Under the pieces are notes generated by a model. The model had not been told where the DNA came from. It saw only the letters and a program-made list of their open reading frames with translations, and did no database searches. The translations under genes were made by a program, and so were the position numbers. This document shows, piece by piece, positions 5,697 to 60,916 of a DNA stretch of 64,000 nt. Position 1 is the first letter of the stretch, and every line of letters begins with the position of its first letter. Source of the DNA: a virus (lineage: Duplodnaviria; Caudoviricetes); IMG/VR virus record IMGVR_UViG_3300036546_000172, positions 32,001 to 96,000 of that record; one strand, 5' to 3'.

Positions 5697-7532
5697 ATGA
5701 ACAAGGTTATTACAGCTGATACAATTTACCAGCAATTACCATCTCATATTCTTGAGCAATACCCAAACTTTGTTCAATTTCTAAAAGCATATTATGAATG
5801 GGTATCTAGAGAAGACGGCCCATATGATAGACTTAAGAATCATATGGACTACCTGGATTTCCAGAGATCTATTGATGAGTATATAACAGCGATGAAGTCG
5901 GAATATCTTGTTGATGTTCCCGATTCTGTGTTATTAGATAAAGAACTTTTTATTAAATGGTCTAAGAAATTCAACTTGTCTCGTGGTTCACAAGAATCAT
6001 ACAAGTTCCTATTCAGTATTCTATTTGATGAACAAGATACTGAACTTTACCTACCCAAGGATAATATTCTTAGAACTTCAGATGGAGTCTGGATCAATAA
6101 TGAATCTAGACTACTTTTGACAAATTCTGGTAATCTTAATGAGTTCAGGTTTGCCAGGCTTACACAGAAAAAAGAAGTACTTCCTGGCTTCTTTGAATAC
6201 GCATATGCAAACGTACAGACTGTAAGAAACAGATACTCCGGCGGTTATAATCTTCTAGAGCTTACTGTCTCCGATGTAGAAGGTGACTTTGTTCGAGAGT
6301 TCCCGGTTGTTTCCTCCACTGGTGCCGAAGAGTGGCTAATTGAGACTGCACATGACTTCACGATCAATGCTTTCTGTGAGCAGTGTACTCCTGGCTCCAG
6401 AGTAGATTTTGAAGAGACTCCATTCTACATAGTAGAAAGAGAACTCACATCTGCTAGATTTGATACTAGAGTCACATCATATTTCAATGAAAGTCAAATT
6501 ATCGTAGAAATTAATGGTACATCAACATCTGATTTTGAATTTGATGGTAGGTATATTGACAGTCCATTAATGTCTATTGGTGATACGATTAAGGTGACCT
6601 TCCCTACTTATAAAGGCTATATGATCTTCAATGGCTCTGACATAGAGGTGTTAGAGACTCCAATTGGACTATCTGATGATGCAACATTAACAATTGAAGC
6701 TCCCTATGCTACAATCTTTGATGTTGTTGCACATCCGGGTGCTTCGAGTCCGATTGCTGGATATTATGAAGATAACCGTGGACATTTATCTTCGACGATG
6801 TATCTTCAGGATAGCTTCTATTATCAAGAATATTCATATGCAATAAGAACAAAACAGAATATTGATTCTTATGCTAATACAGTTAAGGATCTGTTGCATC
6901 CGTCCGGCTTTGCAATGTTTGGTTATCTGCGAATTGTGGATATTCTTGAAATTCTCCTTGAGCTTGTGTCTAGTGAATATGACATCTTGCCTTGGGGGAT
7001 AGAGTCAAGGGCAAAATATACTCTTGGTCCGAACTATTCATTCTTGGATAAGTTCAAACATGGGTTGTCTGGTAGACTTTATAATCTTTCACACTTCAAT
7101 GATAAGAATGGAACTGAGTATGAGTATTATGTAGATAATTCTTACATGATAGATCAAGAAGACTATGTTTATACTAAGGTTACATATAATTCAACCTATG
7201 AGCTAATTTATGCTATAGGTGAAGATGGATACGATCTTGAAGACTCATCGATGACAAAAACATTTATTGGTGGATCGTATAATATCAGAGGATATACAAC
7301 ATACCTAGAATTAAATTACATAGATGATCAAAATAAATATTTAATTAATAATGTTCCTATCTATAGACAAGAGACTACCGATGGTAATTGGGTTGTGGAC
7401 AAGAAAGGCTGGATGACCAAGCATTACCTACAAGACTATCATTTGTATCTACCACAAGACTATTCAGAAGAAACAGAAAGCGGCTTCAACTATTTTGAAA
7501 CCGGATATATCACACAGAGGGTACAGCAATAA
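5697..7532 (+). CDS. gp7: Baseplate wedge gp7-like
   Basis: QLP....YP.FV.FLKAYYEW, RGS..SYKFLF, LQDSFYYQEYSY, HPSG..MFG. Confidence 0.8.
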   Translation: MNKVITADTIYQQLPSHILEQYPNFVQFLKAYYEWVSREDGPYDRLKNHMDYLDFQRSIDEYITAMKSEYLVDVPDSVLLDKELFIKWSKKFNLSRGSQESYKFLFSILFDEQDTELYLPKDNILRTSDGVWINNESRLLLTNSGNLNEFRFARLTQKKEVLPGFFEYAYANVQTVRNRYSGGYNLLELTVSDVEGDFVREFPVVSSTGAEEWLIETAHDFTINAFCEQCTPGSRVDFEETPFYIVERELTSARFDTRVTSYFNESQIIVEINGTSTSDFEFDGRYIDSPLMSIGDTIKVTFPTYKGYMIFNGSDIEVLETPIGLSDDATLTIEAPYATIFDVVAHPGASSPIAGYYEDNRGHLSSTMYLQDSFYYQEYSYAIRTKQNIDSYANTVKDLLHPSGFAMFGYLRIVDILEILLELVSSEYDILPWGIESRAKYTLGPNYSFLDKFKHGLSGRLYNLSHFNDKNGTEYEYYVDNSYMIDQEDYVYTKVTYNSTYELIYAIGEDGYDLEDSSMTKTFIGGSYNIRGYTTYLELNYIDDQNKYLINNVPIYRQETTDGNWVVDKKGWMTKHYLQDYHLYLPQDYSEETESGFNYFETGYITQRVQQ

Positions 7533-11391: not shown

Positions 11392-14300
11392 ATGACTCAA
11401 GTAGATAAGTCAAAGTCTCCATACTATGATGATTACAGCGCTGATAAGAATTATCACGAAATTCTGTTCCGCCCGCGTCGCGCTGTTCAAACTCGTGAGC
11501 TAAACCAAATTCAGTCACAGTTTAAAGAGCAGCTTAGTCGGTTCGGTGATAATATTTTTGAAGACGGGTCTGTTGTAATTCCCGGTGAATCAAATTATGA
11601 TTTAGAATTTAAATATGTCCAAGTTAATATTACTAACTATTCTCAGATTGTTGGTCTTCTTGGTTCACAAAATCTTGAACTAGAAATGGCAAATGGTATC
11701 AGAGCAAAAGTTAAAATGTTTGCTGAACCGGAAGGTGCTGATCCTGCTACTTTCTATATTGAGTATATGGAAGGCTCAAATGATGGGGGTTCAAATAACT
11801 TCCAAGCCGGAGATACTATAACAATTAATTTGGCTGGCAACCAGATTGGACAAGCATCGGTTATTGGTACTGGACTTGGTTCTAAGTTTACACTATCCGC
11901 TGGTGTTTACTATATCAACGGTCGATTTGTTCTTGTCACCACGGAATCTGTTTTACTAGACAAATATAGTAATGCTCCATCAAAAGTTGTTGGTATTCAA
12001 TATGATGAAGTAGTTGTTACTGAGTCTGGTGATAGCAGCCTATTTGATAATGCTCAGGGTACGCCAAACTTCTCTGCTCCTGGTGCACATAGACTCCGTG
12101 TAGATACAAAGCTTGTTGTTTATGATCTGGACAGTTCAGAAACAATCCCAGACAATGTGGTTGAAATCTTCCGAATTAGTAATGGTCAGATTCAGAAGAA
12201 GTATCGCGGACCTGACTATAACATTCTTGGTGATGTTATGGCTCAGAGGACATATGAAGAGTCTGGTGACTACACTGTCAAGTCATTCAATATCGGTTTT
12301 GCTGATTTTGAGGAAGGATTCGGTCTTGAGGATGATAGCAAATTTACTATCCAACTAGATCCGGGTCTTGCTTATGTGCGTGGTTATAGGATTGAGACAA
12401 ACTCCAAGACTAATATTGCGGCAGATAAAGCACGAGATGTTGGTTTAATTAATAACAGTTCTATTTCTGCTGCTTTGGGATATTATGTTGAGGTTGAAAA
12501 TCTCAGTGCTATGCCAAGTGTTGTAAATTTACAATCTCTGAACTTTAAAGATGGTACATCGACTCTACTAGGCACCGCACGGATTCGTTTTATATCTAAT
12601 CCATCAACAAATGTTTACAGATTGTATTTATTTGATGTCCGTGATACGGCAGGTATTAGATCTACAACATTTATCAATAGTGCTGTAACGGTTGATTCTA
12701 CAGATACTGTTACATTTAGTGCTGATTTGATTGAATCAACCATCTACGAAGCAACATTTAACTCTTTGCTATTCCCGATGAACGTAGAGTTTGTCCGTTC
12801 TTTGAATGTTAACAATGGACAATCAGATACTTCATATTCTTCGGTTAAGCAAGTAACAAGTACTGTTGATTCATCGGGTCAAGTTACTTTCACTGCTGGT
12901 GGTAATGAGGTCTTTGTTGGACAAGATGCACGTTTTGCATTTGGCGCGTTCACAGATACAAATGAGTTTGTTGATATTTCTACAAGCTATACTCTTGGTG
13001 GTTCTCCGACTGGTTCATTTATCACCTTGAATCTTGGTTCTGCAAATGCTGGACGACCTGTAAGACTGAATCTTCAGGTAGCCAAGCAAGAGGTTATTCA
13101 AAAGACAAAAACAGTTACCCAGCATACAATCTCTGGTTCGGTTACTAATGGCAGACTGGCTCTCGGTAAGGCCGATGCTTTCCGTATTATCTCTATAACA
13201 GATAATGGGAATAATGATGTAACTAATCTGTTTACACTGGAACCAAATAAAACCAGTTCGTTTTATGGTACATCATACATAGAGACAGGATCATCGGTTT
13301 CCAATCCAGTTACAGTTGTTTTCGAATATTTCTCTCATTCTAGTGGTGATTATTTTGGTCCAGATTCTTATGTTGATCTGGATTATGATGACATTCCAAA
13401 TGAGGGTGGTATTAGATTATCTGATGTTCTGGACTTTAGGCCTAGAATTAATGATGCCGGTACTGGATTTACCGGTGCTGGGTCATCGGTTGGTAATATT
13501 CCGACGCCATTCAGTATTATCAGAACCGACCTTGAGCACTACTTGAAGCGTATTGATAAGGTGTATGTGAATAGTGAAGGTGAATTTGGTGTGGTTAAGG
13601 GTGTTCCTGATCTTGATCCGTCGGCACCAGCTGATCCTGCTGAGTCTATGGTTCTTTATACACTTTATGTTCCACCATATACATTTGATCTCGAAGGTGT
13701 TCAGGCTGAAAAGGTTAATAACCGCAGATATACAATGAAAGATATCGGTAATATTGAGAACCGATTGTCAAACGTTGAATACTATGTTACATTGAATATG
13801 CTTGAACAAGAAACAGAATCCGCCCAAGTAACTGATCCTGTGACTGGTGCAAACCGCTTCAAAAACGGTTTCTTTACAGATCGGTTTATTGATCACGGCT
13901 CTGCTGATTTTGCATGGCCTGGCTATCATGTCGCGATGGATGACGAAGATTCAGAACTTCGTCCTGAATTTTCCATGAATGCTATTGATCTACAGATGAA
14001 TGAGCTCGGATCTTCTAATGTTGTTGTGTCTGATAACATTGTTACATTGCCTTATGAAGAAGTAACATATGTTAAGCAGAATCAACGGTCAAGAACCCTG
14101 AATGTTAACCCATACGCAATCTACAGATGGACTGGTACACTTAAGCTGAATCCTTCTATGGATTCATGGATTGATACACACTATACCAATCCAGATGTGA
14201 CATACAGAGTCTTCAATAATGGTCGTTTGACACAAAGTTGGAAATCTTGGCAGCTTAACTGGACTGGTGGAGTTAATAGCACATCTCGTTCATTTACACG

Positions 14301-17277: not shown

Positions 17278-17731
17278 GTTCAGTCAGAGAAGTATAAACA
17301 ATCTCCAATATGTAGATGAAGACCTGGTAGAGACTTGTTACTTGGCTCTAGAGTTTAGCACAGTCGATTTTGGTATTTCCGAAGGGCTTAGAACAAAATC
17401 TAGACAAAAAGAGTTGTTTGATAGCGGTAAATCACAAACAATGAATAGCAAACATCTCGATAATCCATCTACACCGGATATTATTGACAGCTGGGCTGTT
17501 GATGTTTACGCCTATGTCAATGGTGGTGTTTCCTGGGACATTAAGCATTATATTCAAATTGCTGAAGCATTTAGACAAGCTGGTATTGAATTAAATAACA
17601 AAATAAGATGGGGCGGTTCGTGGACAATCTTAAATAATGAACCAAGTGCAGAGATCGCATATGAAGATTATGTTGAATCTAGGCGAAGTCCATTTGTCGA
17701 TGGCCCTCACTTTGAAATCATTAAGGACTAA
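17264..17731 (+). CDS. Endolysin, peptidase M15 (L-Ala-D-Glu peptidase type)
   Basis: FS.RS..NL..V..DL, EGLRT..RQ, SKH....AVD, RWGG.W, DGPHFE; GTG 17264 follows GGAGAAG. Confidence 0.85.
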   Translation: MNNFKFSQRSINNLQYVDEDLVETCYLALEFSTVDFGISEGLRTKSRQKELFDSGKSQTMNSKHLDNPSTPDIIDSWAVDVYAYVNGGVSWDIKHYIQIAEAFRQAGIELNNKIRWGGSWTILNNEPSAEIAYEDYVESRRSPFVDGPHFEIIKD

Positions 17732-17734
17732 CAA

Positions 17735-18472
17735 ATGGCTGTAACATCAAGAGAAGAATTAAAACAATATTGCTTACGTCGCCTTGGTCAGCCAGTCATT
17801 GATATTAACGTTGATGATACACAGCTTGAAGATCGTATTGATGAAGCACTGGAGGTTTATCAAGAGAAGCACTATGACGCAACCGAACGTGACTGGGTCT
17901 ACTATGAGATAACTCAGACTGACATCGACAATGGATACGTGTCTATTCCTGATGACATCTTGGTGGTGATCTCTATATTACCATTTAATGAGATTATCGC
18001 CCAAGGCAATATGTTCTCATATCAGTATCAAATTGCACTGTCTGAATTGTCTCCTTGGCGTCCATTTAACCAATTAGACTATTTCATGAAAGTGACTAAT
18101 TACGAGTCCATTGCTAACATGACATCCGTGACTCCTACCATGGATTTTTCGCGTCATGGTCGCAAATTGAAGATCTTTGCCGAGCTTGGGAACTTGGGTG
18201 TAGGCTATAAGCTGGGCGTACAGGTTCAAAGAATAATTGACCCTGAAACAGTGACAGCTGTTTATAATGACAAATGGTTGAAGCAATATGTTACTGCTTT
18301 GATGCAAAAACAATGGGGAATGAATATGAAAAAGTTCTCTGGTGTTCAGATGCTGGGTGGTGTAGAGCTTAACGGTCAGCAGTTATTCGATGAGGCAGTA
18401 CAAGAGATTGAGCGTCTGGAAGAGCAGTTAGAAACAACGTATATGCTCCCTGTTGATATGCTTATAGGATAG
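17735..18472 (+). CDS. gp13: Neck protein gp13
   Basis: LKQYCLRRLG.PVI.INV...Q.EDRI.EAL; W.K.Y.TAL...QWG.N..KF.G..M.GGV.LNG. Confidence 0.92.
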   Translation: MAVTSREELKQYCLRRLGQPVIDINVDDTQLEDRIDEALEVYQEKHYDATERDWVYYEITQTDIDNGYVSIPDDILVVISILPFNEIIAQGNMFSYQYQIALSELSPWRPFNQLDYFMKVTNYESIANMTSVTPTMDFSRHGRKLKIFAELGNLGVGYKLGVQVQRIIDPETVTAVYNDKWLKQYVTALMQKQWGMNMKKFSGVQMLGGVELNGQQLFDEAVQEIERLEEQLETTYMLPVDMLIG

Positions 18473-24595: not shown

Positions 24596-24628
24596 TATAA
24601 ATAGCGGTGGATATCCACCGCTTATTTT
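24596..24628 (+). promoter_or_regulatory. Late promoter followed by terminator-like hairpin
   Basis: TATAAATA 24596-24603, then AGCGGTGG-ATAT-CCACCGCT-TATTTT. Confidence 0.7.
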
Positions 24629-24642
24629 CATAAAGGTCTTTT

Positions 24643-38306: not shown

Positions 38307-39026
38307 ATGAAACTAACAAAAGAAATAGATAGTGTCGATGATGTTGAATTCGAACTCATTGAAAGCGGTAGACTTAAACCATCCAACGGTGGCAATTATG
38401 TCAACAACAAAGAATTGTACCAGGAATTTATAGAGTACACGAAGAAAAAGCAAGCTCTGTTTGATGAGTTTTTGATCCAGGTACATTCTGAGTTTCAAAT
38501 TCAATCGCCTGATGAACTGAAAGATAGTCAGCGTAAAGATTACCAGAAGCGCATCAAAGAATTCAGACCACCACGCTTGACAAACAAGATCGGAGCGGCT
38601 ATTATCCAGATTGCTACACGTCGTTGCAACGCGCGGCAGTTCGTAGGATATTCCAACAACTGGAAAGAAGAGCTGATTGCTAATGCGATCATGACAGCTA
38701 CCATCCGGTGTCATAATTTCAATCCAGAAAAAAGTGATAATCCATTTGCATACTTGACTCAGATTTGCAACAACGCTATACTGGATCAGCTGAAGAAGGA
38801 AAAGCGTCAGTTGTATATTCGATACAAGTCGATGGAAGAGGCCGACGGTTTTGTCGGTGAGGTAGACGAGAACAACATGGATGAAAGTGAATTGCATCAC
38901 ATGATGGACAGCGCACCTTCAGATCAGCGACGCAAGTACATTGAAGATTATGAAGCATCGAACTTCACCAAGAAGGAAGATGCAAAAGACGAGCCAGATG
39001 ATGGCGTCATGAGTTTTGTAGATTAG
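38307..39026 (+). CDS. gp55: Late transcription sigma factor gp55
   Basis: YVNNKEL, IG.AI..IA, F.GYS..WKEE.I, NF.PEKS.NPFAY.TQI..NA....LKKEK. Confidence 0.93.
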   Translation: MKLTKEIDSVDDVEFELIESGRLKPSNGGNYVNNKELYQEFIEYTKKKQALFDEFLIQVHSEFQIQSPDELKDSQRKDYQKRIKEFRPPRLTNKIGAAIIQIATRRCNARQFVGYSNNWKEELIANAIMTATIRCHNFNPEKSDNPFAYLTQICNNAILDQLKKEKRQLYIRYKSMEEADGFVGEVDENNMDESELHHMMDSAPSDQRRKYIEDYEASNFTKKEDAKDEPDDGVMSFVD

Positions 39027-58162: not shown

Positions 58163-58196
58163 AACAACTCCCGATAGCTCAGCTGGATAGAGCAAC

Positions 58197-58324
58197 AGAG
58201 ACAACAAAGCCTCGCGCTAGCTCAATTGGATAGAGCACCTCCCTTCTTTTGTGCATTCGTGTAGTGTACAAAAGAAGGAGGTGGTTACTGGTTCGACTCC
58301 AGTGCGCGAGGCTTTGTTGTCTTT
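58197..58324 (+). ncRNA. tRNA-Arg(TCT)-derived RNA with a 27-nt anticodon-loop insert and extended acceptor helix
   Basis: Intact D and T arms; insert 58248-58274 pairs with the anticodon; 19-bp terminal helix; no CCA. Confidence 0.8.
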
Positions 58325-58377
58325 AAAAATACAAAATATGATTCCCACTCGGGAATCCAATATAAGATAGGTGACAT

Positions 58378-58656
58378 ATGAATTCACATTTGAGTTTACT
58401 CGGATGCCGAGCAAGAGATAAAGTAACAGGTATCGAAGGTGTGGTAACTACTGTATCATTTGATTTGTACGGTTGCATTCAAGCAGTACTGACTCAGAAG
58501 GCAGATGAGAAAGGTGAGTATAAGATGTCACCGTGGTTTGATGTTACACGCCTTGACATCGTTGACCATAACCCGGTTATGACACAGCCGAACTTTGAAC
58601 TGGGATATGTTGCAGAAGGTAAGAAGGGAGCTGCAGAAAAACCTCAGCCTATGTGA
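58378..58656 (+). CDS. Hypothetical phage protein (SH3-like)
   Basis: LLG...RDKVTG..GVVT...FDLYGC.Q...WFD..RL. Confidence 0.65.
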   Translation: MNSHLSLLGCRARDKVTGIEGVVTTVSFDLYGCIQAVLTQKADEKGEYKMSPWFDVTRLDIVDHNPVMTQPNFELGYVAEGKKGAAEKPQPM

Positions 58657-58673: not shown

Positions 58674-58864
58674 GATAAATAGAAAGGTATAAACAAGGAA
58701 CCAATGATGAACACTCAAAACACCATCGATGCGTCCAATATGCATCCCGGATATAGTAATTCGATGGCTCTCTGTGGCTATAAGCCAGGATACAGAGAAC
58801 GAGGGTTTTGAGCTGATATTGCAGTCATAGTTCATCAAACCCTCCAGTTGGAGGGTTTCTTTTT
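58674..58864 (+). promoter_or_regulatory. Late promoter, leader ORF and attenuator-like alternative hairpins
   Basis: GATAAATA 58674-58681; ORF 58704-58811; terminator AAACCCTCC-AGTT-GGAGGGTTT-CTTTTT 58837-58864; competing GAGGGTTT at 58801-58808. Confidence 0.7.
58704..58811 (+). CDS. Putative 35-aa leader peptide
   Basis: RBS AAGGA 58695-58699; MMNTQNTIDASNMHPGYSNSMALCGYKPGYRERGF*. Confidence 0.55.
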   Translation: MMNTQNTIDASNMHPGYSNSMALCGYKPGYRERGF

Positions 58865-58892
58865 ATACTCGGATAAGGTACAATGAGTTTTC

Positions 58893-58978
58893 GGGTAAGC
58901 GGTGAAGTTGGAGAGTCACACCAGATTGTAACCCTGGCGCCATGTGCTGAGTAGGTCCGAATCCTACCTTACCCACCA
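58893..58978 (+). tRNA. tRNA-Tyr(GTA), degenerate
   Basis: Cloverleaf with CCA, but C at position 8, T-loop GTCCGAA and an A31-C39 mismatch. Confidence 0.7.
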
Positions 58979-58985
58979 ATAACAG

Positions 58986-59014
58986 TTGCACAACATCACA
59001 GGACATCATATAAT
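58986..59014 (+). promoter_or_regulatory. Sigma70-type promoter
   Basis: TTGCAC-17 bp-TATAAT. Confidence 0.75.
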
Positions 59015-59051: not shown

Positions 59052-59537
59052 ATGAACGCAACTACCTATATCATGAGCAAGCTGGATGAAGTTTTCGCGC
59101 CAATGGATGCAAAAGTACTGGAAGCTTCAAAGAAGTGGGGCGTTGAGCGTTTTGAGGCGATCAAAGAGCTGAGAGCTTCAGGAGAACTGAACGGTTTGAA
59201 CTCAGCTGAGAAATATGATCGTCTCTACGCGGTAGCTGGTGGTAAGACTTGGTACAATATCTTCAACGGTCGTAATGCTAAAATGATCGAAGAGATCATG
59301 GAAAAGAATTGCAAGATGACCGCTGAGAAGCGGAATGCTAAGATTGCAAGTAAGTTGGAGAAGGCTGGCGTTACAGAGGTGCTCAGCTCTGACTTCAGCG
59401 ACACACACGATGGATTCAACGGCTACTTCGGCGTCGAAACCAACAAAGGTAAGAAGACAGTAGAAGTAGAAACAATTTATGCAGGTGGATACAACATTCA
59501 ATGCCTGCATCTGAGAGTACTGGTGAGGGTCAAATGA
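59052..59537 (+). CDS. Hypothetical phage protein inserted in the tRNA array
   Basis: 161 aa, C-terminal TI.AGGYNIQCLH.R.L; own promoter and RBS. Confidence 0.7.
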   Translation: MNATTYIMSKLDEVFAPMDAKVLEASKKWGVERFEAIKELRASGELNGLNSAEKYDRLYAVAGGKTWYNIFNGRNAKMIEEIMEKNCKMTAEKRNAKIASKLEKAGVTEVLSSDFSDTHDGFNGYFGVETNKGKKTVEVETIYAGGYNIQCLHLRVLVRVK

Positions 59538-59546
59538 CCCTCCTTT

Positions 59547-59623
59547 CGGAGCTTAGCTCAGCTTGGTAGAGCATCCGGTTTGGGACCGGAAGGTCGAAGG
59601 TTCAAGTCCTTCAGCTCCGACCA
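59547..59623 (+). tRNA. tRNA-Pro(TGG)
   Basis: Canonical cloverleaf, loop TT-TGG-GA, CCA. Confidence 0.92.
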
Positions 59624-59630
59624 TTTTTAT

Positions 59631-59718
59631 TCCCAGGTAGACAAACTGGTAAAGTCGCCGGACTGTTAATCCGGTTTCCGAAAGGATATTGTAGGTTCGA
59701 AGCCTACCCTGGGAGCCA
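59631..59718 (+). tRNA. tRNA-Asn(GTT) with long variable arm
   Basis: TCCCAGG/CCTGGGA acceptor, G73, loop CT-GTT-AA, CCA. Confidence 0.88.
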
Positions 59719-59724
59719 GACAAC

Positions 59725-59813
59725 AGAGAGTGATTCCAGCTGGTGCTGGAGACCGCCTGCTAAGCGGTTCGCCTGATTCATCGGGTGTGGTTCAATTCCA
59801 CCGCTCTCTGCCA
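59725..59813 (+). tRNA. tRNA-Ser(GCT)
   Basis: Loop CT-GCT-AA, long variable arm, G73, CCA. Confidence 0.82.
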
Positions 59814-59814
59814 T

Positions 59815-59913
59815 GGAGAGGTAAGCCGAAAGATCCGGGGTAGCGGCAACGGTCGTGAAAACCGAGGGTTTACGAAAGTAGACGTCAGGGTTCGAATCCC
59901 TGTCTCTCCGCCA
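59815..59913 (+). tRNA. tRNA-Ser(TGA), atypical G33
   Basis: GGAGAGG/TCTCTCC acceptor, long variable arm, loop CG-TGA-AA, G73, CCA. Confidence 0.78.
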
Positions 59914-59919
59914 TATTGT

Positions 59920-59998
59920 GGTGAAGGTGGCCGATATTGGTTAAGGCGCAAGGTTGTGACCCTTGTATATGCGAGTTCGATTCTCGTCCTTCACACCA
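59920..59998 (+). tRNA. tRNA-His(GTG)
   Basis: Loop TT-GTG-AC, G-1 present, A73, CCA. Confidence 0.85.
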
Positions 59999-60003
59999 CT
60001 TAT

Positions 60004-60081
60004 AGGGGCGTAGCTCAGCGGTTTAGCAGCAACCGGCTTTTAACCGGTAGGTCGTGAGTTCGAATCTCACCGCCCCTACCA
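60004..60081 (+). tRNA. tRNA-Lys(TTT)
   Basis: Loop CT-TTT-AA, CCA. Confidence 0.9.
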
Positions 60082-60082
60082 T

Positions 60083-60156
60083 GACGAGTTGGCCGAATGA
60101 CCAGGCGACGAGCTGCAACCTCGTTCATGTGAGTTTGAATCTCACACTCGTCTCCA
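60083..60156 (+). tRNA. tRNA-Cys(GCA)
   Basis: Loop CT-GCA-AC, U73, CCA; T-loop TTTGAAT. Confidence 0.82.
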
Positions 60157-60294
60157 ACATTGATGGTCTTTCGAAATGAATAGTAGTTATCACATATAAA
60201 TGACGCTACAATGTATTTCGAAAGTTAAGAACACCGCCGGACTGGCCCATCCGGGTACTGGTAGGGATTGAAGTTCCTAGGGCCACGCTCTTTA

Positions 60295-60679
60295 ACAAAC
60301 ATCATTGAGGTAGTCTCTAGGTGAGTTAACGGCCATTGACTCATTGAGGATTGGCGGAATAAAGTCGGAGGTCTTGGGCTTAACGCACGTTCAAAGAGGT
60401 GGTTCTCGGTCATCTATCAAATGGTAGATGACGCAGTCTGAAAAGGCTTGAACGGTTCCTTGCATACACTACAGGCTACAGACCCTACTCTGTTAAGCAT
60501 GTCAACAGTTCTCTCACCCTCATGCATGACTTGAAGATATTCTTCATAGTCGATGTCTGGCAACAGATGAGACAACAGATGACCAATCTAAGTCAGTCAG
60601 AGTCAACAAAGAGAGATGCAGGGGTGTTGGTAATAAGCTAGTCCAGCATTCTCACAGAGACTACCTCAATGATGTTTGT
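60295..60679 (+). ncRNA. Unassigned ~385-nt highly structured RNA
   Basis: Perfect 24-bp terminal helix, many internal helices, GAAA and GCAA tetraloops on the + strand. Confidence 0.75.
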
Positions 60680-60684
60680 ATTAG

Positions 60685-60762
60685 TGCAGGGTGGACTGGA
60701 GATGGTTCCAGCTCGGTCTCATAAGCCGAATGACGGGGGTTCGAATCCCTCCCCTGCTTCCA
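60685..60762 (+). tRNA. tRNA-Met(CAT), initiator-like
   Basis: Unpaired 1:72, TCGGT/GCCGA anticodon stem, loop CT-CAT-AA, CCA. Confidence 0.82.
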
Positions 60763-60840
60763 TATAATCGAAAACCTGGTGCGGTGTGATGATACATCTA
60801 CTACAGGGTACCGAGGATGGTAGTTCACTCGGATCTTTTA

Positions 60841-60916
60841 GCCCGGTTAGCACAATTGGGAGTGCAATCGCCTTGTAAGCGATAGGTTGTAGGTTCGAGT
60901 CCTACACTGGGCACCA
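60841..60916 (+). tRNA. tRNA-Thr(TGT)
   Basis: Loop CT-TGT-AA, CCA. Confidence 0.92.

Follow-up and report, generated by a model that had tools for sequence, protein, structure and literature searches.

Can the expression of phage tRNA genes be controlled by ribosomes that translate a short leader peptide? This question is raised by a small open reading frame (ORF) and an intrinsic terminator that lie directly before tRNA genes in the genome analysed here. Leader-peptide attenuation is textbook knowledge for amino-acid operons, and to our knowledge the classical leader-peptide attenuators do not include tRNA operons; we know of no described case in which such attenuation controls tRNA genes. 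The whole stretch of DNA that was analysed, hereafter the window, is 64,000 nt long and corresponds to bases 32001-96000 of an IMG/VR virus record, which has direct terminal repeats and a length of 137,942 bp. An earlier note on this DNA had proposed trp/his-type attenuation at this site. From sequence features, alternative-fold energies, and conservation and covariation in four phages, we consider that the stretch is probably a transcription attenuator of the ribosome-mediated (leader-peptide) type that precedes phage tRNA genes, and our confidence is kept at a little better than even because the family is still small and its support is computational. We infer that the leader ORF is translated and that read-through responds to its translation.

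Genome setting and elements of the leader unit

The major head protein of this virus is 73% identical to its counterpart in Pseudomonas phage pf16; for Methylophilales phage Melnitz and further distantly related T4-like phages the identity is about 55%. The leader unit is placed in a tRNA island, and the features that matter for the analysis are listed below with their positions in the window.

38574-38873: homologue of gp55, the T4 late sigma factor
58079: tRNA-Leu, upstream of the leader unit, inside the tRNA island
58378-58656: 92-codon gene, between a tRNA-like folded stretch and the leader unit
58674..58681, + strand: T4-type late-promoter-like box GATAAATA, 30 nt 5′ of the leader ATG
58695..58699, + strand: Shine-Dalgarno-like AAGGA, with spacers of 4 and 7 nt to the first and second ATG
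58704..58811, + strand: leader ORF MMNTQNTIDASNMHPGYSNSMALCGYKPGYRERGF, ATG-ATG start, 35 codons and TGA
58705..58721, + strand: region 1, the 5′ arm of the closing helix in the minimum-energy fold (start codon, codons 1-6)
58801..58814, + strand: region 2, the last codons and the stop, whose partner is region 1 or region 3
58829..58837, + strand: 3′ arm of the closing helix P1, which joins the antiterminator stem in the alternative fold
58837..58864, + strand: regions 3 and 4, intrinsic terminator AAACCCTCC-AGTT-GGAGGGTTT and CTTTTT, with a 9-bp stem and the loop AGTT
58893..58978, + strand: tRNA-Tyr(GTA), 34 nt past the terminator stem
58987..59014, + strand: sigma70-like site TGCACA-16-TATAAT, 10/12 matches
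59052-59537: 161-codon gene, between tRNA-Tyr and the remaining tRNAs
59547..60916, + strand: remaining tRNAs, Pro, Asn, Ser, His, Lys, Cys, Met and Thr

The box, the AAGGA, the 35-codon ORF, the terminator and three perfect 8-nt pairings (58705-12/58830-37, 58714-21/58805-12 and 58801-08/58837-44), all of which had been pointed out in the earlier note, are present. The box had been taken as a late promoter, and this assignment was strengthened by several observations. The motif NATAAATA is found on the + strand 28-60 nt 5′ of many ORF starts in this genome, including those of the tail sheath and the major head protein, and the other three copies of GATAAATA are all likewise 28-60 nt 5′ of ORF starts. 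NATAAATA is also the published late promoter motif of T4-like cyanophages (PMC2984593), and the phage encodes the gp55 homologue listed above. The motif precedes four of the five complete leader units described below, including all three of Salicola phage SCTP-2, where it is located 44-60 nt before the ATG; the unit of the nearest relative, G001, does not have it.

The leader ORF uses 28 different codons, NAY codons accounting for nine of the 35 by hand count, and a 34-codon form of it was called by the gene caller in a Logan assembly. The AAGGA sequence is unpaired in the minimum-energy fold. Two observations on the ORF count against the attenuator reading: two other frames across the same stretch are also open, and the codon usage of the ORF is closer to that of spurious ORFs than to that of the phage's genes. 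The claimed breadth of the peptide, which contains 18 kinds of amino acids and all nine residues served by the downstream tRNAs, was correct as a count, but such windows make up about 5% (all nine residues) and about 9% (18 or more different amino acids) of random 35-residue windows.

Alternative pairings of the leader RNA

When the alternatives were folded computationally, the predicted 1:2, 2:3 and 3:4 pairings were all found. The protector pairing (1:2) is present as the closing helix, in which 58705-21 pairs with 58805-12 and 58830-37, and this helix surrounds a multi-branched core. As isolated hairpins, the 2:3 structure is more stable (-16.6 kcal/mol) than the terminator (-13.8 kcal/mol), whereas in the full transcript the combination of closing helix and terminator (-57.5 kcal/mol) is favoured over the forced 2:3 fold (-51.5 kcal/mol). 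The RNA from 58674 to 58870 folds with -63.4 kcal/mol (z = -5.2), and the exact 178-nt transcript belongs to the top 0.4% of the genome's 178-nt windows, corrected for composition.

The same switch behaviour was observed in one of 120 dinucleotide shuffles of the sequence. By a folding-based switch score, a change of similar size was obtained for two of the 11 other terminators of the genome, which counts against the attenuator reading. An exact complement of at least 8 nt to the terminator 5′ arm, located at most 100 nt upstream, was found only here and in the G001 counterpart among 108 terminator-like hairpins, which were those of this genome, of the tRNA islands of eight relatives and of three isolates, the units of G018 and SCTP-2 having been found later.

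Related units before tRNA genes of other phages

In G001 (148.7 kb), the nearest relative, a leader unit heads an array of 19 tRNAs, and its terminator lies 26 nt before the first of them. The leader ORF has 38 codons, MFTMNSNTKAQPAKGYHNPAMSLGFNIWSDREVEIKGF, and its end, AAGGGCTT, is the exact complement of the terminator 5′ arm. A closing helix of about 22 bp pairs the start-codon region with the spacer before the terminator, and its letters differ from those of the window unit. The poor Shine-Dalgarno sequence and the lack of NATAAATA in G001 were counted against the attenuator reading. The two leader peptides scored 27 for similarity in frame (P 0.019), compared with 10 and 4 when either of the other frames was used, local alignment of the leader nucleotides gave P of about 0.05, and pN was 0.43 versus a pS of 0.72 (pN/pS 0.6). 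By sequence, homology of the two leaders is thus weak, which also counts against the attenuator reading; the inner hairpins differ between the units, and both sequence and inner structure are poorly conserved.

A pattern made from region 2 and the terminator detected the unit of a third phage at the very start of the 109-kb contig G018. The 5′ end of this leader is lost at the contig start; the peptide ends with ...GEIKGF-stop and has 15 kinds of residue, and tRNAs for Phe, Asp, Ser, Glu, Ile, Lys and more are located downstream. With the G018 leader, a match to the cultured jumbo Salicola phage SCTP-2 (440 kb) was obtained. This phage carries three units, in which the ORFs have 37-44 codons, the stop codon is part of region 2, and a distance of 24-33 nt separates the terminator from a tRNA trio (Asp-His-Met, Ser-Glu-Thr and Lys-Phe-Trp).

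SCTP-2, 296.5, 303.8 and 308.8 kb (L172-L174): leader units with near-identical terminators AAACCCTTCC...GGAAGGGTTTTTT

Unit A, the sole annotated leader of the three (hypothetical protein gp335), begins with MNSNT, which is the same as the N-terminus of the G001 leader and resembles the MNTQNT of the window leader. The closing helix (1:2) is absent from the SCTP-2 units.

Six units in four phages share the same design, in which an ORF of 35-44 codons has its stop within region 2 and a tRNA gene follows the terminator at a distance of 20-34 nt. The terminators of the units have -13.8 to -16.6 kcal/mol, and in no unit is the 2:3 hairpin (-16.8 to -26.8 kcal/mol) less stable. The eight pairs of the 2:3 core are formed in 47 of the 48 cells across the six units, and covariation was observed at three columns, two in the core and one flanking it. 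In the two core columns both partners vary (A-T becomes G-C in one, and C-G becomes T-A or T.G in the other), and the flanking column, which is outside the terminator stem, shows four pair types and is paired in 6/6 units. Because the terminator stems of the six units are alike, part of the 2:3 conservation follows from the 3:4 pairing; the signal specific to 2:3 consists of the flanking column and of a position in G001 that is G-C in 2:3 where 3:4 has only G.U. An ORF with its stop in the antiterminator, accompanied by covariation, had been suggested as the pattern to look for before the tRNA arrays of relatives, and it was found in G001, G018 and SCTP-2.

Searches by similarity detected little. 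Using blastn against 50,697 phage records, matches to tRNA-Tyr only were obtained, and the loci located via the two flanking proteins had no leader. Scans of IMG/VR with 16-mers and 24-mers gave chance matches or none, and exact look-ups returned identical copies only, in other assemblies. The leader peptide retrieved itself and repeat proteins only from 1.84 billion representative proteins by phmmer, and tblastn with the window and G001 leader peptides retrieved nothing. In 19 related records the element was not found by BLAST, and a single-sequence covariance model gave one match, a plain terminator after a gene in G002. Since this model missed even the G001 unit, such searches are insensitive for short leaders. 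A block-pattern scan and a peptide-alignment scan each returned G001 only.

The design was counted as absent from eight other T4-like genomes with tRNA arrays, which is evidence against the attenuator reading; the tRNA islands that do not have it are those of G002-G004 and G014-G017 and those of DLP_6, C48C1, Melnitz and HTVC008M. Also counted against this reading was pf16, in which a 55-codon gene and a hairpin that has no T tract precede tRNA-Tyr and no counterpart was found there. A 27-codon ORF with a terminator precedes tRNA-Trp of phage Moby, but the 2:3 pairing is absent there. The pf16 paper mentions '13 instances of a weaker motif', ACAAAAAGGGCTCCTTGGAGGGCTTTTCTTTGA, as a possible promoter (PMC5587285); judged by its letters, this motif reads as an intrinsic terminator of the GGAGGG-TTT type, as in the window.

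Leader codons and the downstream tRNAs

At the level of sequence, the strongest functional signal is the match between leaders and tRNAs in SCTP-2. Each of the three leaders is enriched for the amino acids of its own tRNA block, with 17, 18 and 12 residues on the diagonal compared with 1-8 off it (P = 0.005, 2e-5 and 0.017). In unit B, eight of the nine Thr codons are ACA or ACG, as read by eye, and these are read by the adjoining tRNA-Thr(UGU).

In the window leader, the nine amino acids that have a downstream tRNA account for 20 of 34 residues, compared with 38% expected (P 0.013). Under strict wobble the downstream tRNAs can read only 16 of the 35 codons (P 0.03-0.1), which counts against the attenuator reading, and there is no codon run. 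Enrichment of the G001 leader for the amino acids of its array gave P 0.08, and G001 is uninformative on this point because the array covers 18 amino acids. The proposal that the leader samples many codons was not supported, since the tRNA match of the window leader is modest both by amino acid and by codon and the G018 peptide has few kinds of residue. A leader with nearly all 20 amino acids was likewise rejected as a family trait: 18 kinds are present in the window (P 0.09) and 19 in G001 (P 0.04), but only 15 in G018. In sum, the core of the earlier proposal, trp/his-type attenuation before tRNA genes, gained comparative support from the six units, the covariation and the SCTP-2 match, and several of its sub-claims proved weak.

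Predicted response to ribosomes on the leader

Ribosomes were modelled in two ways, as a masked footprint of 28 nt (model A) and as a barrier beyond which only the downstream RNA folds (model B). For the window unit and G001, masking of ribosomes gave a three-state logic, in which no ribosome means stop, a finished leader means stop, and a stalled ribosome means go. The closing helix makes the untranslated RNA of these two units terminate (terminator arm sequestered 0.37 and 0.09), and a ribosome at the end of the ORF also leads to termination. The claim that stalling anywhere on the leader would give read-through held largely in model B, where helices are kept from closing around the ribosome (codons 1 to about 28), but in model A only codons 1-10 had this effect, which counts against the attenuator reading. 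The true behaviour should be between the two models, and queued ribosomes behind the stalled one could widen the sensitive range of codons. For the SCTP-2 units, both models predict that the antiterminator forms unless a ribosome is on the last seven or so codons; that is, a finished leader means stop, and a stalled or untranslated leader means go.

The proposed mechanism for the window unit is as follows. Transcription would be initiated near 58687 from the late-type promoter. If the leader is not translated, region 1 would pair with the end of the ORF and the spacer, the terminator would form, and an RNA of ~178 nt would end at 58864. A ribosome that reaches the stop codon would cover region 2, and the terminator would form in this case too. 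When a ribosome is held up earlier, region 2 would be free to pair with the terminator 5′ arm, and the polymerase would enter tRNA-Tyr and probably proceed further.

Which genes would be under the control of such a switch was a separate matter, and the earlier picture of a gated array had to be narrowed. It fits tRNA-Tyr, the only tRNA located between the terminator and the sigma70-like site at 58987, but not tRNA-Leu, which is upstream of the switch. Judging from this arrangement, tRNA-Tyr would be the sole gene clearly gated here if the attenuator is real. Sigma70-like sites are as frequent in the region as expected from shuffles; the one at 58987, which counts against the attenuator reading, could drive the 161-codon ORF and the remaining tRNAs, bypassing the switch and giving this part of the array a promoter of its own. 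No + strand terminator was found between 58865 and 61000, and a polymerase that reads through would therefore continue into the remaining tRNA genes. Since the 161-codon gene is found elsewhere with no tRNAs beside it, it may have been inserted later into an ancestral arrangement of leader and array like that of G001.

Alternative explanations

The alternative that survives best is an attenuator which works independently of translation, in which a protein, a small molecule or an RNA such as a tRNA opens or closes the closing helix and the ORF is incidental. The closing helix around a multi-branched core is indeed similar to a riboswitch aptamer, the fold is among the strongest of the genome, and the translation start signals of G001 are weak. 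The inner hairpins, however, are not conserved between the units, and the ORF with its stop in region 2 is. Moreover, the SCTP-2 units keep the ORF although they have no closing helix, their leaders match the tRNAs, and the window unit matched no Rfam family, neither a T-box nor a riboswitch. We regard this explanation as unlikely.

According to a second explanation, similarly improbable and ranked just after the first, the stretch consists of a small late gene and a terminator, both of them ordinary, the terminator closes the upstream transcription unit, and the complementarity has no regulatory role. The atypical codon usage and the lack of any relative of the peptide among the 1.84 billion representative proteins argue against a conventional gene, although the geometry of promoter, Shine-Dalgarno sequence and ATG is like that of other late genes and unit A of SCTP-2 is annotated as the hypothetical protein gp335. 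Small ORFs and terminators are common in phage tRNA islands, for example in those of Moby and pf16, and similar switch scores were obtained at other terminators of this genome. On the other hand, the peptides diverge freely, yet the stop within region 2 and the covarying 2:3 pairing are kept; all six units are directly before tRNA genes, and the leaders of SCTP-2 match their tRNA blocks.

Least probable of the three is a stable structured small RNA of ~178 nt, produced late and with its own function in trans, whose position would be like that of the T4 species 1 and 2 RNAs. The unit has its own promoter-like box and a strong terminator, its compact fold buries the start codon, and it is placed in a tRNA island like T4 rnaC and rnaD. 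The poor conservation of sequence and inner structure and the lack of likeness to rnaC or rnaD speak against such an RNA, which would also leave the conserved 2:3 alternative and the amino-acid matching in SCTP-2 unexplained. A function as a small RNA could be compatible with attenuation, as is reported for terminated leaders of other bacteria (PMC7968998).

Four specific candidates were rejected: an RNA like T4 rnaC or rnaD, since these two have a T arm resembling that of tRNAs and show no similarity to the unit; a type I toxin mRNA, since the leader peptide is hydrophilic; a T-box or riboswitch, as no Rfam match was obtained (for T-box, none at E up to 10); and a tRNA or tmRNA, after tRNA and Rfam searches.

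Comparison with known systems

The attenuator that we favour resembles the enterobacterial leaders trpL, hisL, pheL, thrL, leuL, ilv and pheM (pheST) in its short ORF and in its exclusive 1:2, 2:3 and 3:4 pairings, of which 3:4 is an intrinsic terminator. The stop codon is likewise placed so that a terminating ribosome blocks region 2, termination in the absence of translation is predicted for the window unit and G001, and the leaders of SCTP-2 are enriched in the residues presumed to be sensed. Unlike in the enterobacterial systems, the regulated genes would be phage tRNAs instead of genes for biosynthesis or synthetases, no codon is repeated in tandem runs, the window leader being mixed, the promoter is of the T4 late type, and the leaders, with 35-44 codons, are longer than most classical ones. 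None of the Rfam leader families was reached in a 241-nt search, in which the best was Phe_leader with 23 bits against a gathering threshold of 55 bits (E 0.077), or in a 12-kb scan.

Antibiotic-inducible leaders that sense general translation stress, such as those of B. subtilis bmrCD and of mef/mel, are reported to allow read-through when ribosomes slow down on a leader ORF of mixed composition, and not upon the lack of one amino acid (PMC4191407, PMC4335068); the window leader would respond in a similar way. Those leaders control bacterial resistance or stress genes, whereas the output here would be phage tRNAs, and the SCTP-2 leaders differ further in that each is tuned to particular amino acids. 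The T-box leaders of Gram-positive bacteria also report the state of tRNA by a choice between terminator and antiterminator, but they bind uncharged tRNA directly and have no leader ORF; the window unit has no T-box match. T4 rnaC and rnaD are similar as small structured RNAs beside phage tRNA genes, but rnaC has a tRNA-like T arm, is processed from a tRNA precursor, is devoid of ORF and terminator switch, and shows no similarity to the window unit. A full-text literature search retrieved no report of leader-peptide attenuation for phage tRNA genes.

Taken at face value, the sequences indicate that these phages probably tune their tRNA output to ribosome decoding. A more general proposal, which we offer tentatively and consider possible rather than probable, is that phages of several lineages have placed tRNA genes under leader-peptide attenuation: a test ORF would read the decoding capacity of the infected cell, which is lowered when particular tRNAs are lost by starvation or by host anticodon nucleases, and the matching tRNAs would be supplied on demand, the window switch being a mixed-codon, three-state version with a late promoter. 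The tie to anticodon nucleases, repair enzymes and tRNA rescue is conjecture. If the proposal is true, phage tRNA genes are regulated by a direct read-out of decoding and are not simply constitutive helpers of codon usage, which bears on whether phages carry tRNAs for codon bias or for escape from tRNA-targeting defence. Because the family includes a cultured phage, SCTP-2, with three units tuned to different tRNA trios, the idea is directly testable.

Other observations in the tRNA island and the genome

Several loci near the leader unit are of interest in their own right. The stretch 58163-58377, between tRNA-Leu and the 92-codon gene, is the genome's strongest fold (178-nt windows of -79 kcal/mol, z of about -7) and is tRNA-like, and neither ARAGORN nor Rfam called a tRNA there. 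ARAGORN missed a tRNA at 59724-59810, probably a Ser tRNA of class II, for which tRNA-Sec was the best-scoring Rfam model (59.8 bits). A weak match to the Rfam manA RNA motif was obtained at 60321-60491, where a long non-coding gap separates tRNA-Cys from tRNA-Met (33 bits against a threshold of 55 bits, E 1.6e-5); it covers the full length of the model. Unannotated tRNA-like sequences with a GGTTCGA T-arm motif were also noticed in G001, just upstream of the leader (L138, minus strand, about 1900-2010), and inside the tRNA island of phage Moby (L024, 190-250), and ARAGORN made no call at either.

Position 58764 is the exact end of two JGI contigs from different samples, and another contig, also from one of these samples, starts within the leader at 58749. 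The contigs are identical to the window except for one SNP far upstream, and therefore the break at 58749-58764 is probably an assembly break and not a variant.

Other loci with some of the strongest structure are located at 6780-7080, 12250-12520, 17680-17960 and 100200-100600 of the genome, the last of which (68200-68600 in window coordinates, past the end of the window) is around a TATAAATA box and a long hairpin. At 24596-24630 of the window, a terminator-like hairpin (GCGGTGGATATCCACCGC and a T tract) directly adjoins TATAAATA on its 3′ side. Since a late transcript would start inside the stem, it would escape termination, and transcripts from upstream would end there.
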